57,272 nucleotides of DNA, taken from positions 4,128 to 61,399 of the forward strand of contig JBBDXP010000015.1 of NCBI GenBank assembly GCA_040902285.1, read 5' to 3'. Below the pieces are notes generated by a model that did not search any database, was not told the origin of the DNA, and saw nothing but the letters and a program-made list of their open reading frames with translations. The DNA is from Candidatus Spechtbacterales bacterium (lineage in GTDB: Bacteria; Patescibacteriota; Minisyncoccia; Spechtbacterales; 2-12-FULL-38-22). A program made the translations under genes and the position numbers. Positions 9,589 to 28,738 of the stretch are shown one piece after another. Position 1 is the first letter of the stretch. Every line of letters begins with the position of its first letter.

Positions 9589-10380
9589 ATGAACAACTAT
9601 TTTAAAAAAATATCACAACTCGCAAGTTCTTGGATAAAATCTATACACGGATTATTTGGCAATGAAGATTTTTCTGAAGAAAAGGACGAGTTCGTTGCCA
9701 TAGTGTCGCACCAGCTTCGCACTCCTGTCTCGGCTCTGTTGGGATATATGTCTTTGCTTAGAGACGGCAATTACGGAAAACTGACATCGGAGCAGTTGAA
9801 CGTGATAAACAAATCATTAAAAATAACTCTGGGCATGGAACGCATGATTGATAATTTTCTCAGTGTATCGCACGCCGAAAGGGGAGTTTTAAAATTCCAC
9901 TTTGAAAAAACCGATTTACGCGATATTATAGATGAGGTTGCAGAAAGACATGAAATGCAGGCCAAGCGCAAAGAACTGCAAATAAAATGGCTAAGACCGG
10001 ATAATCCCGTTTATATAGATGCTGATATTGGAAAGCTTTCCAATGTTTTTTCAAACATTTTAGACAACGCGCTTAAATACACCGAGAAGGGCGGAGTATC
10101 CATAAGAATTCTTGAGGATAAGCGCAAGGGAATTGTTGAAATATTTATAAAAGACACGGGAATGGGTATAACCTCGGAAGATGAAAAAAATATATTTAAG
10201 AGTTTTTACAGAGGAAAAAAAGTGCACAATATCGAACCTGCGGGTGCCGGACTCGGCTTGCATGTGGCAAGAATGGTAATTGAAGGCCACGGGGGAACAA
10301 TAAGAATAGAGGGAACAAAGGAGGGTGCCGGAACAACGTTCGCGGTAGAGCTTCCCGATATGCCGGAAAAAATAAAATGA
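9589..10380 (+). CDS. Histidine kinase (HisKA + HATPase), no obvious sensor or TM domain
   Basis: SHQLRTP H-box, NILDNALKYT, DTGMGI, GAGLGL. Confidence 0.93.
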   Translation: MNNYFKKISQLASSWIKSIHGLFGNEDFSEEKDEFVAIVSHQLRTPVSALLGYMSLLRDGNYGKLTSEQLNVINKSLKITLGMERMIDNFLSVSHAERGVLKFHFEKTDLRDIIDEVAERHEMQAKRKELQIKWLRPDNPVYIDADIGKLSNVFSNILDNALKYTEKGGVSIRILEDKRKGIVEIFIKDTGMGITSEDEKNIFKSFYRGKKVHNIEPAGAGLGLHVARMVIEGHGGTIRIEGTKEGAGTTFAVELPDMPEKIK

Positions 10381-22643: not shown

Positions 22644-23003
22644 ATGGGCATTTTAAATTTATTACCGGCTCGCATTATACTTTTGGCATTAATATTGCTG
22701 ATATTGTTGTTTGTGTTGCCGGAAGGCATTATAAATGAAATTCCGGGAGCGCAGTGGACTAAAAGTTATCTGGAAAAGACGTTTTCACAGATGTGGAACA
22801 CGGCCAATAATATATGGAATAAACTTGTTAGTTGGCTGGACAATGCCGCTGCCGTGGTACGCGATTCGTTTAACAGAACGCAGGCAACAGTACAATTGCT
22901 TGTAAAAGAGAAGGTGCAGGCGCTGGAAGATATTCTCAAGGCCGTAGATGCCATTAATAGGTTATTTAATACCGATAATACAGATAATACAGATACAAAA
23001 TAG
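22644..23003 (+). CDS. Hypothetical membrane-anchored protein
   Basis: N-terminal TM and helical body; C-terminus formed by a 9-bp repeat (TDNTDNTDTK). Confidence 0.6.
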   Translation: MGILNLLPARIILLALILLILLFVLPEGIINEIPGAQWTKSYLEKTFSQMWNTANNIWNKLVSWLDNAAAVVRDSFNRTQATVQLLVKEKVQALEDILKAVDAINRLFNTDNTDNTDTK

Positions 23004-23021
23004 ATACCTGAGGAACCGTGT

Positions 23022-23066
23022 TTATCCACAATAGGGTATTGACGACATAGTATGTCGTTTTATAAT
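23022..23066 (+). promoter_or_regulatory. Sigma70-type promoter upstream of xer with a DnaA box and a palindromic operator
   Basis: TTATCCACA (23022-23030); TTGACG (23039) - 16 bp - TATAAT (23061); ACGACATA-G-TATGTCGT (23042-23058). Confidence 0.65.
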
Positions 23067-23074
23067 AGATATAT

Positions 23075-23104
23075 AACTGAGCATTAGAGATATTATACTC
23101 AGTT
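23075..23104. other. Candidate dif-like Xer recombination site
   Basis: AACTGAGCATTA-GAGATA-TTATACTCAGTT: 12-6-12 inverted arms (10/12 complementary), 7/11 match to each E. coli dif arm, 56 bp upstream of xer. Confidence 0.6.
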
Positions 23105-23160
23105 TAATATACTTCTAATATAAGCCCGCCCCGGCTATTTAACCCCTCTCCCCCAAGTTT

Positions 23161-24117
23161 ATGACAAAAAAAGACAAACAAGAAATACTGCCATACTTTG
23201 ATGATTTTTTGCTTCACATACAGACAAATAATTATTCAAAGGAAACTCTATATAACTACGAAAGAGACCTAAGGACACTGGGCGCTTTTTTGACCTCCGA
23301 AATGAACGGTCTCCCCTTCTCCGACATACAAAAGCGCACAATTGAGCAATTTAAGGCATATTTGACCTCAAATGACCGCAAAACTTCTGCGGGTGCAAAA
23401 CCCCAAAAACAACTACAAAGCGGCTCTATCAATCGAATTTTGAGCTCTGTGAGAAGGTATTTGGTATATTTGATAGACATGGATTACAAAGTGCCCATAG
23501 CTCCCGAATCAATTAAATTGCTTCGCACGGAGAAAAAACACCCTCAAGTAGCCGAATTGGAAGACCTTACACGGCTTATTGAAACCCCAAATGAGTACGA
23601 AAAGGATAAACTGGTGGGATTGCGAAACCGGGCAATGTTGGAATTGTTGTTTGCCACCGGTATGCGAATAAGCGAACTGGTTAATTTAAAAAGGGATCAG
23701 GTTGATAAAACCGGTAAAATATTTATCACGGGCAAAGGGAAAAAGCAAAGATTTGTTTATCTCACGGACCGCGCAATCAGGCATTTAAAAACATACCTTG
23801 ACGAACGCTCTGATAATTCGGATTTTATGTTTGTTCCGTACAGAGGCCGGAACGCTCAGGAAAAGCGCCCGATTTCCACAAATTATTTGCAAATGAAAAT
23901 AAAGCAATATAGAAACCTTGTTGGAATAAATGTTCCCACCAGCGCTCACTCGCTAAGACACGGCTTTGCCACCTATCTTGCCGAAAAAGGAGCAAATCCC
24001 GCTGCCATACAGATACTCTTGGGCCATGAATCTCTCGATACCACCACGCGCTATGTTCACGCTTCGGACAAATACGCCCAAAGAACCCACAAAAGATTTC
24101 ATCCGCTCAAGGATTAA
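23161..24117 (+). CDS. Xer-family tyrosine recombinase
   Basis: SAM-like N-domain; TGMRISE, GKG.K.R, HSLRH, LLGH and TTRY catalytic residues. Confidence 0.95.
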   Translation: MTKKDKQEILPYFDDFLLHIQTNNYSKETLYNYERDLRTLGAFLTSEMNGLPFSDIQKRTIEQFKAYLTSNDRKTSAGAKPQKQLQSGSINRILSSVRRYLVYLIDMDYKVPIAPESIKLLRTEKKHPQVAELEDLTRLIETPNEYEKDKLVGLRNRAMLELLFATGMRISELVNLKRDQVDKTGKIFITGKGKKQRFVYLTDRAIRHLKTYLDERSDNSDFMFVPYRGRNAQEKRPISTNYLQMKIKQYRNLVGINVPTSAHSLRHGFATYLAEKGANPAAIQILLGHESLDTTTRYVHASDKYAQRTHKRFHPLKD

Positions 24118-24129
24118 GCTTAAAAAAGT

Positions 24130-24223
24130 AGGGGTTGACCCCTCACATGGAAATTGAGTAAACCCCAACCTAATTAGTTCAGATACCATATACATTTCTT
24201 TGACCGCCATGTGAGGGGTTGAC
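24130..24223. repeat. MITE-like element with terminal inverted repeats and AGGGGTTGAC direct repeats
   Basis: CCCCTCACATGG (24139-24150) and CCATGTGAGGGG (24207-24218); AGGGGTTGAC at 24130 and 24214. Confidence 0.7.
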
Positions 24224-24309
24224 AAATAAAAAATGTGTTATACTAAAATTGAGAGTATAACAGTTTTTTCGGCAGAGCTCAGTTACAATTAAATAATTCT
24301 AGATAGTCC

Positions 24310-25167
24310 ATGCGCAGAGTAAAACACAATCCGTTAACAAGATTGATGAGTCGCATATGGCGTCCTTTTACGCATGGATACAGATTTCTCGGATTTTTAA
24401 TAGCTGTTTTTACAATTTTGTCCGGCTCCATATTTGTTAGCGACCTCATAAAAAATCCCGAGTTAACCTGGGAAGAAAAAATCAAAAAAGCCCTAAGCTT
24501 GTCAAGTTTATCTCTTTTAGAATCAGGGACAAAGGAAATTAACAATATTCAAATAGTCGAAGAGGACAAAAGCACCTTTGATTGTTCTAATTTGGATTCC
24601 GATTGGGTGTCGGGAAGCGGTTTAAGATTTGAAGAAAGAAAAATCAAATTGCAACCAGGCAAATTGGCGGGTGCGGCGTTCCTGAGAAACCCGATAAGCA
24701 TATTTTTTAATTTTGAGCTAAACCTGCGTTCTGTTTTAAAAAGCGGAATAAACACAAATTTATCTTTTTATAACAGCCAGGGAGAACTTAGATACGCGAT
24801 AGGAGACGGGGATTTCAACACCGTACGGCAAATGTTTATAGACAACGCCGGATATGTGCGAACAATGGAGGTAACTAAATTGGAGGTCCCCATAGACAAT
24901 ACTTATGATGTGGGTCTTAAAATAAGCGTGGTGGAAAAAACAGATTCCAGGGTTGCCATAGCCACCCTAACTTATAGAGATTCTTTGGGAAAAACGCATA
25001 CGCGGGATTTGGAAAACCTAATTATCCCAAAATCGCAGCAATTATACCACAATGTGGGACTTGGAATAAACGCGTCTTTAGAATTATATAATCTTGAAAA
25101 CGCCCATATGGAAATAAAAACCTGCAAAATTAAAGAGGTTTCCGCTTCGGAACTTCTCAATATCTGA
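24310..25167 (+). CDS. Hypothetical membrane-anchored beta-rich protein
   Basis: 285-aa ORF with one N-terminal TM; no motif recognised. Confidence 0.7.
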   Translation: MRRVKHNPLTRLMSRIWRPFTHGYRFLGFLIAVFTILSGSIFVSDLIKNPELTWEEKIKKALSLSSLSLLESGTKEINNIQIVEEDKSTFDCSNLDSDWVSGSGLRFEERKIKLQPGKLAGAAFLRNPISIFFNFELNLRSVLKSGINTNLSFYNSQGELRYAIGDGDFNTVRQMFIDNAGYVRTMEVTKLEVPIDNTYDVGLKISVVEKTDSRVAIATLTYRDSLGKTHTRDLENLIIPKSQQLYHNVGLGINASLELYNLENAHMEIKTCKIKEVSASELLNI

Positions 25168-25232
25168 TTATTGCCAAAATAAGTTTATTATCCTATACTA
25201 TTTACATTGTGGTTCTTTAAAAGGAGGTCTGC

Positions 25233-26279
25233 ATGAACCCTCGCGTTGCTGTTGTGGGAGCTACGGGCGCCGTTGGCAGGATGATGGTAAAAATTTTGGG
25301 AGAAAGAAATTTCCCCTTATCTGAGTTAAAACTTTTTGCGTCTGAGCGCTCTGAGGGCGAGAAAATTTATTTCAATGCAGGATATAGACAGGTAAAAAAG
25401 TTTACGGTCGAGGTTTTGTCTGAAAGCAGTTTTAAAAACTCTGACATAGCACTTTTTTCAGCCGGTTCTTCGGTAAGCAAAGAGATTGCCCCTTTGGCGA
25501 TAAGTAGCGGATGTTATGTTGTAGACAATTCAAGCGCATGGCGCATGAATCCGGGCGTGCCGCTTATTGTGCCTGAGGTTAATTCTCAAGACATCGATGA
25601 ATATTGGAAAAACGGAAAAATGGGCCTTATCGCAAACCCCAATTGTTCAACGATACAAATGGTTGTTGCCCTCTCCCCTATTCAAAATGCGGTCGGCATA
25701 AAAAGAATAGTAGTTTCAACTTATCAGTCGGTTTCGGGTACAGGACAAAAAGGGATTTCCGAATTGGGAAAACAAATCAAGGCGTATGAGAACGGATATC
25801 TCTTACAGCGCATGCAAGGGAAAGTTTACCCATACCCTATTTTTTCCAATTGCATACCCCATATAGATGATTTTACGGAAAGCGGAGATACAAAAGAAGA
25901 GTTAAAGATGATAAACGAGACGCGAAAGATTTTGGGTATCCCGCGAATGCCTGTGTCTGCAACCTGTGTTCGTGTCCCGGTTTTCTACGGGCACGCAGAA
26001 AGTATCAACTTTCAGACACAAAAAAGCATAAGAACTGATGAGCTTCGTGAACTGTTATCGAATTCTCCCGGTGTGGAGATTATCGATAATCCCAAAAATG
26101 CCGAATACCCGACACAATTGGCGGCTGTGGACAAGGACAAGGTGTTTGTTGGGCGGATACGCAAAGACAGGTCGGCAAAAAATTCCTTTAATATGTGGGT
26201 CGTCGCGGACAACCTGCGCAAAGGTGCGGCAACAAATGCCGTTCAAATCGCGGAACTTCTCCTTGAAAAGTACCTTTAG
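25233..26279 (+). CDS. asd: Aspartate-semialdehyde dehydrogenase
   Basis: VVGATGAVG, VDNSSAWRM, IANPNCST, CVRVPV..GH, DNLRKGAATNAVQIAE; AGGAGG SD. Confidence 0.97.
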   Translation: MNPRVAVVGATGAVGRMMVKILGERNFPLSELKLFASERSEGEKIYFNAGYRQVKKFTVEVLSESSFKNSDIALFSAGSSVSKEIAPLAISSGCYVVDNSSAWRMNPGVPLIVPEVNSQDIDEYWKNGKMGLIANPNCSTIQMVVALSPIQNAVGIKRIVVSTYQSVSGTGQKGISELGKQIKAYENGYLLQRMQGKVYPYPIFSNCIPHIDDFTESGDTKEELKMINETRKILGIPRMPVSATCVRVPVFYGHAESINFQTQKSIRTDELRELLSNSPGVEIIDNPKNAEYPTQLAAVDKDKVFVGRIRKDRSAKNSFNMWVVADNLRKGAATNAVQIAELLLEKYL

Positions 26280-26312
26280 CAAACCTCAAACCTTCTCAAA
26301 AAGAGAAGGTTT

Positions 26313-26633
26313 TTATTTACAGTTACCCGCGAGAGAAAACCCCGCTGATATTGCTTCGGCCGCGGACTTAAAATATATTTTATTTTCCTCTTTGATTGTT
26401 TTTGCTCCCGAACAATTCAAAAAATGGAATTTATCACTGTTTACGCTTGCGACAACCTCTCCCTCTTGAAAATTTTGATTATTTTGGGTATAATTTGATT
26501 CGTTTACTGCTTTTTCTATGATTATCGGAGGTTTTTGCAATTTCATCAAATTTGAGGTAAAATAACCAAATCCGAAAACAATTATCATACCGAGTGAAAA
26601 AGTGAAAATATAAAACAAATCTTTTTTCATCAT
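26313..26633 (-). CDS. Membrane-anchored protein with Ada-like metal-binding domain
   Basis: TM followed by VASVNSDKFH..NC...I...N...F.S..EA..AGF...C. Confidence 0.7.
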   Translation of the reverse strand: MMKKDLFYIFTFSLGMIIVFGFGYFTSNLMKLQKPPIIIEKAVNESNYTQNNQNFQEGEVVASVNSDKFHFLNCSGAKTIKEENKIYFKSAAEAISAGFSLAGNCK

Positions 26634-26661
26634 TAAATAAATTTATCATTAAAAATACACC

Positions 26662-26934
26662 ATGGCAAAAACAAAAGCGGCCGGCTCTACCAAACTAGGA
26701 AGAGATTCAATATCAAAGCGTCTTGGCGTGAAGCTTTTCGGCGGACAAGCGGTAAGGGCCGGAGCGGTAATAGTGCGCCAAAGAGGTACAAAATTTATTC
26801 CGGGGAAAAACGTCCTACAAGGAGGAGATGATACTCTGTACGCAGCGCGGAACGGAGTCATAAAGTTCCGCGAAAAGCGAAAAATGAATTTTGACGGAAA
26901 ACAAAGGAGAGCAAAAGTTATAGACGTGCTTTAA
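26662..26934 (+). CDS. rpmA: 50S ribosomal protein L27
   Basis: [26 protein letters not shown]. Confidence 0.97.
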
Positions 26935-26935
26935 C

Positions 26936-26962
26936 AAAAAACCCGCAATTGCGGGTTTTTTG
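26936..26962. terminator. Bidirectional terminator between rpmA and rplI
   Basis: AAAAAACCCGC-AATT-GCGGGTTTTTT. Confidence 0.8.
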
Positions 26963-27409
26963 TTAACCTTCTTGTTCTATTATCACTTTTACCTGTGCTT
27001 CGAGCCCGTGATCAAATTCCAGCATTATATCGTACTCGCCCGCGCGTTTTATAGCATCTTCAAGTTTTATAAACTTAGCGGGAACATTGAACCCGGCCTT
27101 TTTCAAGGCCTTGGATATCTTGTCGGCTGTAATAGACGAATACAGTTTGCCTTCATCGGATGCCTTGTCTTTCATTGTAAGCTCGTATCCGTCCAATGAG
27201 GCCGCTGTTTCTTCTACTCCTTTTAGTTCTGACACGGCCTCAGCTTCCTTTTGCTCTAATATCGAATTTAACTTTTCCAACTCATCCTTTGTGGCCGCTT
27301 TTACAAGTTTTTTGGGAATAAGAAAATTGCGCGCATAACCGTCTGATACTTTTTTAACTTCCCATTTTTTCCCCAGATTTTTTATATCTTCCAATAGTAT
27401 TACTTTCAT
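26963..27409 (-). CDS. rplI: 50S ribosomal protein L9
   Basis: MKVILLEDIKNLGK, VSDGYARNFLIPK, GKLYSSI. Confidence 0.97.
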   Translation of the reverse strand: MKVILLEDIKNLGKKWEVKKVSDGYARNFLIPKKLVKAATKDELEKLNSILEQKEAEAVSELKGVEETAASLDGYELTMKDKASDEGKLYSSITADKISKALKKAGFNVPAKFIKLEDAIKRAGEYDIMLEFDHGLEAQVKVIIEQEG

Positions 27410-27538: not shown

Positions 27539-28738
27539 TTATCGCATAGAGCGTATCACTTCAATCGCTTTTTGTTTTTGAGTGTCATTACCGCTTTGAA
27601 AATCTTCTTCGGATAATTCTATACTGATCGTGGGTTCTATTCCTTCGTCGTTTATATACTGCCCCGATGGTGTTATCCATTTAGCTATAGTAAGTTTTAT
27701 ACTGCTCCCTCCCGGCAAGTCCTTAAATTCCTGCACCAGGCCCTTACCAAAAGTTTTTTCTCCCACAAGAGGGGTGTTTTTATGGTCACGTAGTGCGCCT
27801 GCAAGGATTTCAGAAGCGGAAGCCGAACCGCCATTCTGCAATATTACTATCGGAAAATCGCCTAATAATCCCGGCCCCTGACTTCTGTGTATGCGCTTGA
27901 TATCTCTTTGTCTCTCCTCTATTACTATTATTTCATCCTTTTGTAAAAACCATCCGGCTATGCTGGTTGCTGTTTCCAAAAACCCTCCAGGATTATTTCT
28001 TAGATCAACGATTATTCTGTCGGCGGGCGTTGTTAAAATTTCTTGAACGGCTTTTTTAAAATCCTCATCTGTATTATCCGAAAATTGCAATATTTCTATA
28101 TAAGCTATGTTGTCTTCTATAATTTCCCACTTTATAGAAGGCGCCTCTATTGTGTCGCGAATTACGGTTATACCGATTTCTTTGCCGCCTTCTTCCCGAA
28201 TGACGGTTAATTCAACCGAGGTGCCTTTGGGGCCTCGTATCTGCGTTATCGCTTCTTCTAAAGTAATGTCCTTTGTTGTCTCTCCGTTAATTGCGACTAT
28301 AGTGTCTCCGGCTCTGAGACCCGCTCGCAAAGCGGGCGATTCTTTAAGGGGAGACACAATCGTTAACTTATCGTCTTTTAGCGTAATTTCAATTCCCACA
28401 CCTTCATATTTTCCCGTGACACTATCCACAAACTCCGATGTTTCTTCTTTGTCAAAAAATGTGGAATACGGATCTCCAAGTTCTCTTAGCATTCCCCTTA
28501 TTGCCGCGTATATCAGCGCCTCGTCATTTATTTCATCCGCGTTTACATAATCTCTGTGTATAATATCCCAAACGTCCTTTATCAGTGAAAAATCAACCTT
28601 TTCACTTTTAAATATGGAGGGTATGGCAAAATCATAAATATCCGAAGATTTTTTATGTGAAGAACCGGCAAAAAACCCCGCGCCAAAGACGAAAGTTGCC
28701 AGTATAATAAAGGTCAGTATTTTTTTAAATATATTCAT
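27539..28738 (-). CDS. ctpA: C-terminal processing protease CtpA (S41) with PDZ domain
   Basis: DPYS, GVGI, DLRNNPGG, SASASEILAGALRD, GEKTFGKG. Confidence 0.95.
   Translation of the reverse strand: MNIFKKILTFIILATFVFGAGFFAGSSHKKSSDIYDFAIPSIFKSEKVDFSLIKDVWDIIHRDYVNADEINDEALIYAAIRGMLRELGDPYSTFFDKEETSEFVDSVTGKYEGVGIEITLKDDKLTIVSPLKESPALRAGLRAGDTIVAINGETTKDITLEEAITQIRGPKGTSVELTVIREEGGKEIGITVIRDTIEAPSIKWEIIEDNIAYIEILQFSDNTDEDFKKAVQEILTTPADRIIVDLRNNPGGFLETATSIAGWFLQKDEIIVIEERQRDIKRIHRSQGPGLLGDFPIVILQNGGSASASEILAGALRDHKNTPLVGEKTFGKGLVQEFKDLPGGSSIKLTIAKWITPSGQYINDEGIEPTISIELSEEDFQSGNDTQKQKAIEVIRSMR

Follow-up and report, generated by a model that had tools for sequence, protein, structure and literature searches.

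What is the function of the near-palindromic 30-bp element that lies directly upstream of a Xer-like recombinase gene (xer) in the 57,272-nucleotide stretch of DNA analyzed here (referred to as the window)? The question reaches beyond one locus. Much of bacterial diversity lies within the CPR, whose members are nearly all uncultured and are known chiefly from MAGs. The original prediction took the element for a candidate dif site, and three comparative findings now support that view: conservation, linkage to xer, and location at the terminus (published dif criteria are given in PMC2731167). We consider it very probable that the 30-bp element is the chromosomal dif-type site of the Xer protein encoded directly downstream. 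The evidence for this reading, drawn from the sequence of the element and from the three comparative findings, is presented below together with the competing explanations.

Sequence and surroundings of the site

The element reads AACTGAGCATTAGAGATATTATACTCAGTT on the + strand and consists of two arms and a short spacer (AACTGAGCATTA-GAGATA-TTATACTCAGTT; Table 1). It is intergenic, lying between the 119-aa ORF and xer. Near-symmetric 12-bp arms around a 6-bp spacer, placed between the xer promoter and the ATG, had been described in the original prediction, and we confirmed this layout: the arms are complementary at 10 of 12 positions. The stated agreement of the inner 28 bp with the E. coli dif arms (7/11 each) was likewise right, by a hand count against the reference sequence GGTGCGCATAATGTATATTATGTTAAAT (PMC2731167). 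The inner ..TAA-N6-TTA.. of the site is shared with bacterial and archaeal dif. The G+C content of the site (9/30, or 0.30, by hand count) is lower than that of the window, approximately 0.41 (0.40 to 0.42 in the surroundings).

Table 1. Positions of the site and of neighboring features in the window
Feature	Position	Strand	Remarks
119-aa membrane-like ORF	22644-23003		Upstream of the xer promoter
9-nt tandem repeat	22966-23002		GATAATACA, three copies
Sigma-70-like promoter of xer (predicted)	23039-23066	+	TTGACG-N16-TATAAT; 11/12 matches, best in the region
dif-type core recombination site (predicted)	23075-23104	+	30 bp; canonical 28-bp core at 23076-23103 (11-6-11)
Left arm	23075-23086		AACTGAGCATTA; variable; family consensus AACTGAGTGTAA
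Central region	23087-23092		GAGATA; 6 bp, asymmetric; putative strand-exchange region
Right arm	23093-23104		TTATACTCAGTT; nearly invariant
C-rich box	23140-23152		CCTCTCCCCC; CTCTCCCC in relatives
xer	23161-24117	+	318-aa Xer-like tyrosine recombinase; Pfam PF00589 (128.8 bits), PF02899 (36 bits)
Repeats downstream of xer	24121-24270		13-nt perfect inverted repeat ACCCCTCACATGG / CCATGTGAGGGGT; direct repeat AGGGGTTGAC (two copies)
Terminus-like zone	23000-26963		Skew plateau begins at the site; peak at 26928
Palindrome at the rpmA(+)/rplI(-) junction	26934-26963		ACAAAAAACCCG-CAATTG-CGGGTTTTTTGT; perfect 12-bp arms

A search of the 57-kb window allowing up to 3 mismatches returned a single match to the 30-mer. 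Its position-weight-matrix (PWM) score of 44.5 bits falls within the range spanned by 167 orthologous sites (26.5 to 51.6 bits), and the runner-up position in the window scored -1.0. A possible second site at 28552-28581 on the - strand (GGGATATTATACAC), the right half of which is site-like, was rejected as a coding coincidence: it lies inside a ctp-like CDS (codons W-D-I-I-H), its left arm is mismatched, its PWM score is -1.0, and its counterpart is missing from the relative L202. Bare palindromes like the site are frequent in this DNA. Inverted repeats with arms complementary at 10 or more of 12 positions and a 6-nt spacer occur 17 times in the window versus 3.8 ± 1.8 times in Markov simulations, and most of the 17 resemble terminators. 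Given this number of comparable palindromes, the case for the site rests on conservation and context rather than on symmetry.

The xer promoter was predicted as a consensus match, with an inferred transcription start. Its -10 box ends 8 nt ahead of the site, which would thus cover roughly +2 to +31 of the predicted transcript; from the end of the site to the xer ATG (23161), the distance is 56 nt.

Other elements of the neighborhood were recorded along with the site. The tandem repeat upstream of the promoter codes for the tail (TDNTDNTDTK) of the 119-aa ORF. A C-rich box, which is not Shine-Dalgarno-like, lies 10 to 30 nt ahead of the xer start codon in the window and in relatives (equivalents in L002 to L005, L008, L019 to L021, L202, L204, and L206). 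Among the 46 ORFs of the window, xer alone has such a box, which was found in 15 of 42 loci with the site in the same orientation as xer versus 9 of 45 with the site in the opposite orientation. Downstream of xer, the arms of the 13-nt inverted repeat are 56 nt apart, and the repeats are followed by a promoter-like stretch (TTGACA...TATACT) and a 16-nt hairpin. An Rfam search with these downstream repeats gave no match.

Conservation, linkage to xer, and position at the terminus

Among the best 120 database proteins, identity to Xer was 69 to 87%, and the source names of some of them include Spechtbacteria, Kaiserbacteria, Nomurabacteria, and Paceibacterota. When one genome of each species (GTDB representatives) was scanned by alignment, at least 595 relatives were obtained, of which the best 80 loci (59 to 73% identity) were used. 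They cover many lineages of Patescibacteria as well as MAGs labeled Dehalococcoidia/Chloroflexota, the phylum labels being those of the depositors. With up to 8 mismatches to the 30-bp consensus allowed, the site was present in approximately 69 of these best 80 ortholog loci. It preceded xer in every case, and none of the 80 had a second site at the same threshold. The site-negative remainder consisted mostly of loci that were cut short upstream or that had diverged (L055). Conservation upstream of orthologous xer genes, which the original prediction had named as a check, is thus found across many Patescibacteria lineages and also in Dehalococcoidia-labeled MAGs.

Pooling of the ortholog and metagenome loci gave 167 sites (95 distinct 30-mers) with the family consensus AACTGAGTGTAA-GRGWTA-TTATACTCAGTT. 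The 12-6-12 geometry, with 11-6-11 inside, was constant over all 167 orthologous sites. The right arm TTATACTC and the spacer GRGWTA were each found in 88 of the 95 distinct sites, whereas the left arm GAGTGTAA was found in 63, with positions 8, 9, and 11 differing between lineages. In 90 of the 95, the inner arms still differ from each other at one position or more. In the set of 69 sites, G13 and A18 were invariant, as were positions 18 to 22 and 26, and positions 23 and 24 were nearly so. Both arms carry a GAGTnTAA core with symmetric inner positions, and the outer positions covary toward symmetry (positions 1/30, 59 observed versus 43.8 expected; positions 3/28, 51 versus 29.6). When the intergenic region was aligned with those of five relatives, the site was the sole conserved block in otherwise unalignable sequence.

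The placement of the site relative to xer is less uniform than its sequence. The site has the same orientation as xer in 54 loci (including the window clade) and the opposite orientation in 113, and it flips between clades. Over the 167 sites, the median distance to the xer start was 40 nt, with a range from overlapping (approximately 0 nt) to approximately 1,700 nt where a gene is inserted.

Linkage was also assessed from the DNA side by scanning metagenome contigs with the degenerate pattern GAGTRTWAGRGWTATTATACTCA, with no protein input. At least 120 contigs matched, with one match apiece. In 108 of the 120 contigs listed, a Xer ortholog was adjacent, with the site upstream of its start; the remaining 12 either run out within 17 to 231 nt in the direction of the expected xer or contain a known inserted gene and then the contig end. 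No contig among the 120 listed contradicted the linkage of site and xer. The copy number was one each in the 57-kb window, in five 21-kb loci, and in approximately 200 shorter loci and contigs. Close linkage of site and gene, which the original prediction had put forward as a mark of the single-recombinase systems XerS/difSL and XerH/difH, is indeed described as their hallmark in a review (PMC5357621).

A change of GC skew from + to - marks the terminus of replication and not the origin. In the window, cumulative G-C climbs to approximately 23.0 kb, stays flat to 26.9 kb, and drops after its maximum at 26928. The strands of the ORFs follow a similar course, with 19 consecutive + ORFs up to 26.3 kb and - ORFs after that. 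For GTDB species-representative loci with 3-kb flanks, the skew to the left of the site exceeded that to its right in 54 of 55 loci, and the signs across the site were (+,-) in 32 and (-,+) in 0. The metagenome loci, taken in native orientation with flanks of up to 5 kb, gave 23 of 23, 18, and 0, respectively. Across both locus sets together, the pattern was (+,-) in 50 of 78 loci and (-,+) in none. In the 21-kb locus of the complete genome CP174359.1, the skew maximum (9890) falls within the site (9876-9905); on the chromosome of 721,362 bp, the site is located near 542,001. The terminus check by GC skew that accompanied the original prediction therefore gave a + to - switch in the window, in the CP174359.1 locus, and in dozens of other loci.

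Site and skew breakpoint do not always coincide. In the 21-kb loci, the breakpoint lies at +24 nt from the site in CP174359.1, -0.5 kb in L207, +2.3 kb in L205, and +4.0 kb in L202, compared with +3.9 kb in the window; L206 is without a clear switch. The skew maxima of the window and of its closest relative thus fall 3.9 to 4.0 kb rightward of the site rather than on it. Compared with the 0.3 to 96 kb listed for proteobacterial dif sites (PMC2731167), such offsets are small. The flanking synteny consists of core and housekeeping genes, with mraY-ftsW-murG-gltX-M23 peptidase on one side and rpmA/rplI-ctp on the other, converging on the site. A search for FtsK-orienting (KOPS-like) 6- to 8-mers around 23.09 and 26.93 kb returned just A-rich coding-strand words and start-codon contexts.

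Two further observations concern the terminus region. The palindrome at the rpmA/rplI junction resembles a bidirectional terminator and sits exactly at the skew maximum and the point of gene convergence. At L207, the site-xer unit is inverted between M23-gltX-murG and rplI/rpmA/RNase T flanks, which represents a local terminus inversion relative to the window, L202, L204, L205, and L206.

Several lineages have a small gene inserted ahead of xer, with the site intact 230 to 1,700 nt upstream. The inserted genes encode HNH endonucleases (Pfam HNH_5/HNH) in L028, L033, L050, L074, L075, L101, L104, L171, and L195, and LAGLIDADG endonucleases in L007 and L013; L138 contains an IS (rve-type transposase). 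The pattern suggests that homing or insertion is directed at the highly conserved junction of dif and xer. In 11 other loci (L072, L126, L143, L153, L155, L156, L162, L180, L181, L190, and L200), the gene in this place encodes a protein of approximately 450 aa with a SAM-like N-domain and a truncated or degenerate integrase domain, of which only the first ~48 Pfam positions match and in which no HxxR or Tyr motif could be made out by eye. Its C terminus is a nuclease-like domain ('GRADLG...YVEVG') for which no Pfam match was obtained. This fusion protein may have an accessory or partner role.

A separate group of loci (L026, L053, L058, L065, and L077, and also L040) lacks the site upstream of the xer ortholog. 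The operon there consists of a second tyrosine recombinase gene (PF00589, 148.8 bits; called active), a nuclease-like ORF of 170 to 190 aa that is homologous to the C terminus of the ~450-aa fusion protein, and then xer. Just upstream of this operon, L053, L058, and L077 have another palindrome, GTTTCGCAAA-CTGTCAC-TTTTGCGAAA, the shape of which recalls difH/difSL.

The recombinase, its proposed action, and competing explanations

The scores of Xer for PF00589 (Phage_integrase) and PF02899 (SAM-like) are both over the cut-off. The catalytic residues R169, K195, H263, R266, H289, and Y298 are invariant across 20 orthologs and line up with their XerD counterparts. With all catalytic residues retained, Xer is read from its sequence as a presumably active recombinase. 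Its NCBIfam scores are 199.6 for XerC (TIGR02224; cut-off, 335.15), 193.6 for XerD (TIGR02225; cut-off, 329.6), 173.7 for XerA (NF040815; cut-off, 220), and 93.4 for XerS (NF003462; cut-off, 267), all of which are below the respective cut-offs. The best PDB sequence match is XerD (1a0p; E = 1.3e-27), and the match to XerH is weak (E = 1.2e-14). The folds nearest to the AlphaFold model are those of XerA (best), XerD, and XerH; the model is of moderate quality (pLDDT, 75; TM, approximately 0.4 to 0.5 to Xer structures) and supports the assignment at the family level only. As a side observation, Xer residues 15 to 310 are matched (83.6 bits) by PDB 9i5v chain 14, a chain of 401 residues labeled 'Ribosome-associated translation inhibitor RaiA', an odd label for a tyrosine-recombinase-like sequence.

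Xer-related recombinases of candidate phyla have been placed in a separate 'Cand' subgroup (Smyshlyaev et al. 2021, PMC8138268), of which Xer is probably a member. The parts of that account consulted here classify the proteins and give no cognate site, terminus position, or linkage. In XerD, C-terminal RQ..QQ residues contact FtsK-gamma (PMC5357621). In the HMMER alignment to 5dcf/1a0p, the XerD segment RQLHQQ faces AQRTHKR (QR..KR) in Xer, the C-terminal tail of which is invariant inside its own family. Since Xer does not retain the residues through which XerD contacts FtsK-gamma, control of Xer by FtsK cannot be assumed.

In the mechanism that we propose, two Xer protomers would bind the two GAGTnTAA arms of each site, and the two sister sites on a chromosome dimer would synapse as a tetramer. 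Tyr298 would cut at the borders of the 6-bp GAGATA spacer, the cleavage positions being placed by analogy with Xer core sites, and resolution of the dimer at the terminus would follow through two ordered pairs of strand exchanges. The site has polarity because the arms keep a difference and the spacer is asymmetric; these two features may determine the strand pair that is exchanged first, as they do in XerH/difH and XerS/difSL. As far as sequence can speak to it, the shared GAGTnTAA core and the covariation at the outer positions argue for one recombinase acting on both arms. Because both arms carry one recognition sequence, the most likely catalyst is a homo-tetramer of a single recombinase. 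Given the second recombinase-like genes at some ortholog loci, the term 'single recombinase' may not hold family-wide. Since the site overlaps or adjoins the promoter and leader of xer, bound Xer would probably damp its own transcription, and this position makes autoregulation of xer a plausible second role of the site.

Other explanations of the element were weighed against its reading as the dif-type site of Xer. The dif site could be served by two recombinases in the manner of XerC/XerD, with a paralog encoded elsewhere in the genome acting beside Xer. Variation is much greater in the left arm than in the right, a contrast reminiscent of the XerC and XerD arms (PMC2731167), and a second active recombinase gene does occur beside xer in some ortholog loci. 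However, these loci with an extra active recombinase are without the 30-bp site, both arms carry GAGTnTAA and covary toward symmetry at their outer positions, no second tyrosine recombinase gene was found within the 57-kb window, and the tight linkage of site and gene is typical of single-recombinase systems (PMC5357621). We regard a two-recombinase arrangement as unlikely. It is more improbable still that the palindrome is an operator only, through which Xer or another protein represses xer with no recombination. Such a role would fit the window, where the site would occupy +2 to +31 of the transcript as predicted, and other lineages, where it overlaps predicted -10 or -35 boxes: in some opposite-orientation loci the TATAAT of the arm lies 17 nt past a TTGACA, and in other loci the outer end of the site forms the -35 box of a downstream promoter. 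These classes of overlap are nearly forced by the short search space, and -35 boxes were not clearly enriched over shifted controls. Among the inverted-site loci, a -35 box (at least 4/6 matches) was present 16 to 18 nt upstream of the arm TATAAT in 20% versus 12% for the shifted controls, a difference too weak to claim, and the enrichment was dropped. The terminus position belongs to the site and the gene as a pair and thus cannot alone separate a dif site from a pure operator; nevertheless, an operator would leave the position of xer at the skew switch in two phyla unexplained. It would also have to be reconciled with the exact Xer core-site geometry and the conserved asymmetric 6-bp spacer, with an orientation relative to xer that is free (54 same, 113 opposite), and with distances to the ATG of approximately 0 to 1,700 nt.

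Integrative elements and DNA invertases typically have a tyrosine recombinase gene beside its own site. The recombinase gene adjoins the site here as well, and Xer has weak NCBIfam matches to invertases and integron integrases, so the element might be the attachment site of an integrative element with xer as its integrase, or the end of an invertible segment. We consider this very improbable. Each locus has one copy, and no partner site, direct or inverted, was found within the 57-kb window or the 21-kb loci; the flanks are syntenic and housekeeping in content, and the orthologs have identities of 59 to 87% over phylum-level diversity. The pattern GAGTRTWAGRGWTATTATACTCA had no match in viral contigs (IMG/VR), nor did the consensus 30-mer in phage and plasmid records. 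A final alternative, which we find scarcely credible, is an RNA hairpin in the 5' leader of xer that acts on stability or translation. The palindrome would indeed be transcribed at the extreme 5' end of the predicted mRNA in the window, but the fold of the leader is ordinary (z = -1.45), its minimum-energy structure is without the AACUGAG/CUCAGUU stem, and an Rfam search of the leader gave no match. A hairpin also provides no role for the conserved asymmetric spacer, and the site is inverted in approximately two thirds of the loci (113 of 167). With a predicted -10 or -35 box inside or against the site in at least 30 inverted loci, the site would be only partly transcribed there.

As the dif-type site of Xer, the element would have several uses. 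A terminus marker of 30 bp that can be searched for as a pattern would provide an independent anchor with which to check and close CPR genomes, and it would help to orient replichores and support coverage-based growth estimates. The GRiD tool uses dif, and its database predates any CPR site. The site would define the cognate site for the 'Cand' Xer subgroup, and a candidate single-recombinase system with a canonical 11-6-11 site would be a compact option for recombination tools. The gap between dif and xer is flagged as a recurrent insertion point of selfish endonuclease genes. The site-xer pair is also a testable character common to Patescibacteria and Dehalococcoidia. On a wider scale, we tentatively propose that the site and Xer could form a vertically inherited terminus module common to most Patescibacteria and a Dehalococcoidia branch, with the near-invariant 30-mer as a landing pad for the HNH and LAGLIDADG endonuclease genes, the IS, and the fusion gene that recur between site and xer, and with the promoter overlap coupling the supply of recombinase to site occupancy. 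If true, the module could rank among the largest single-recombinase Xer systems by species count and, as a trait common to both groups, would have a bearing on the proposed CPR-Chloroflexota relationship.

Comparison with known Xer/dif systems

The putative dif-type site and xer occur as a pair in hundreds of Patescibacteria and Dehalococcoidia genomes. We assign this pair to the Xer/dif kind, and we found no published description of it: our literature search returned no Xer/dif paper on Patescibacteria or CPR and none with the motif. For three Dehalococcoides genomes, Kono et al. predicted dif sequences that bear no relation to the CPR site.

The systems with a single recombinase offer the closest parallels in organization. 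In XerS/difSL of streptococci and lactococci, as here, the gene lies directly beside the site in one module at the terminus and the arms are imperfectly inverted; as is proposed for the CPR pair, the arms have functional asymmetry and XerS is a single recombinase (PMC5357621). XerS is larger than the present protein (356 versus 318 aa), however, and difSL is a 31-bp site with an 11-bp central region in contrast to the canonical 11-6-11 layout here. XerH/difH of Helicobacter and Campylobacter also combines a site near the gene with a recombinase that acts alone, and XerH is among the nearest folds. It differs in the length of XerH (354 to 362 aa) and in the arms of difH (..TGAAAA-N6-TTTTCA..), which are unrelated in sequence.

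Archaeal XerA/dif combines a single recombinase of XerC/D size with a 28-bp 11-6-11 site at the terminus and near-symmetric arms (..ATAA-N6-TTAT..), and dif is close to xerA in some Euryarchaeota; XerA works without FtsK (PMC2958812). The hosts are archaeal rather than bacterial, and the arms of P. abyssi dif match at just 7/11 and 6/11 positions by hand count. The XerC/XerD-dif system of E. coli and most bacteria resembles the CPR pair in site geometry, in the inner-arm motif, and in having one arm better conserved. Unlike in that system, the arms here share one recognition sequence, and the gene is linked to the site.

The last parallel is XerL/dif of the Legionellales. XerL belongs to a distant clade with its catalytic Tyr at residue 387, and its site was found through a mimicking mobile element (PMC9765430), whereas searches of IMG/VR and of phage and plasmid records gave no such element for the CPR site. 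Nevertheless, XerL/dif is a lineage-specific, single-recombinase system of dimer resolution, as is proposed for the CPR pair, and was overlooked by homology searches; its site, like the one described here, is palindromic, low in G+C content, and located at a skew maximum (PMC9765430).
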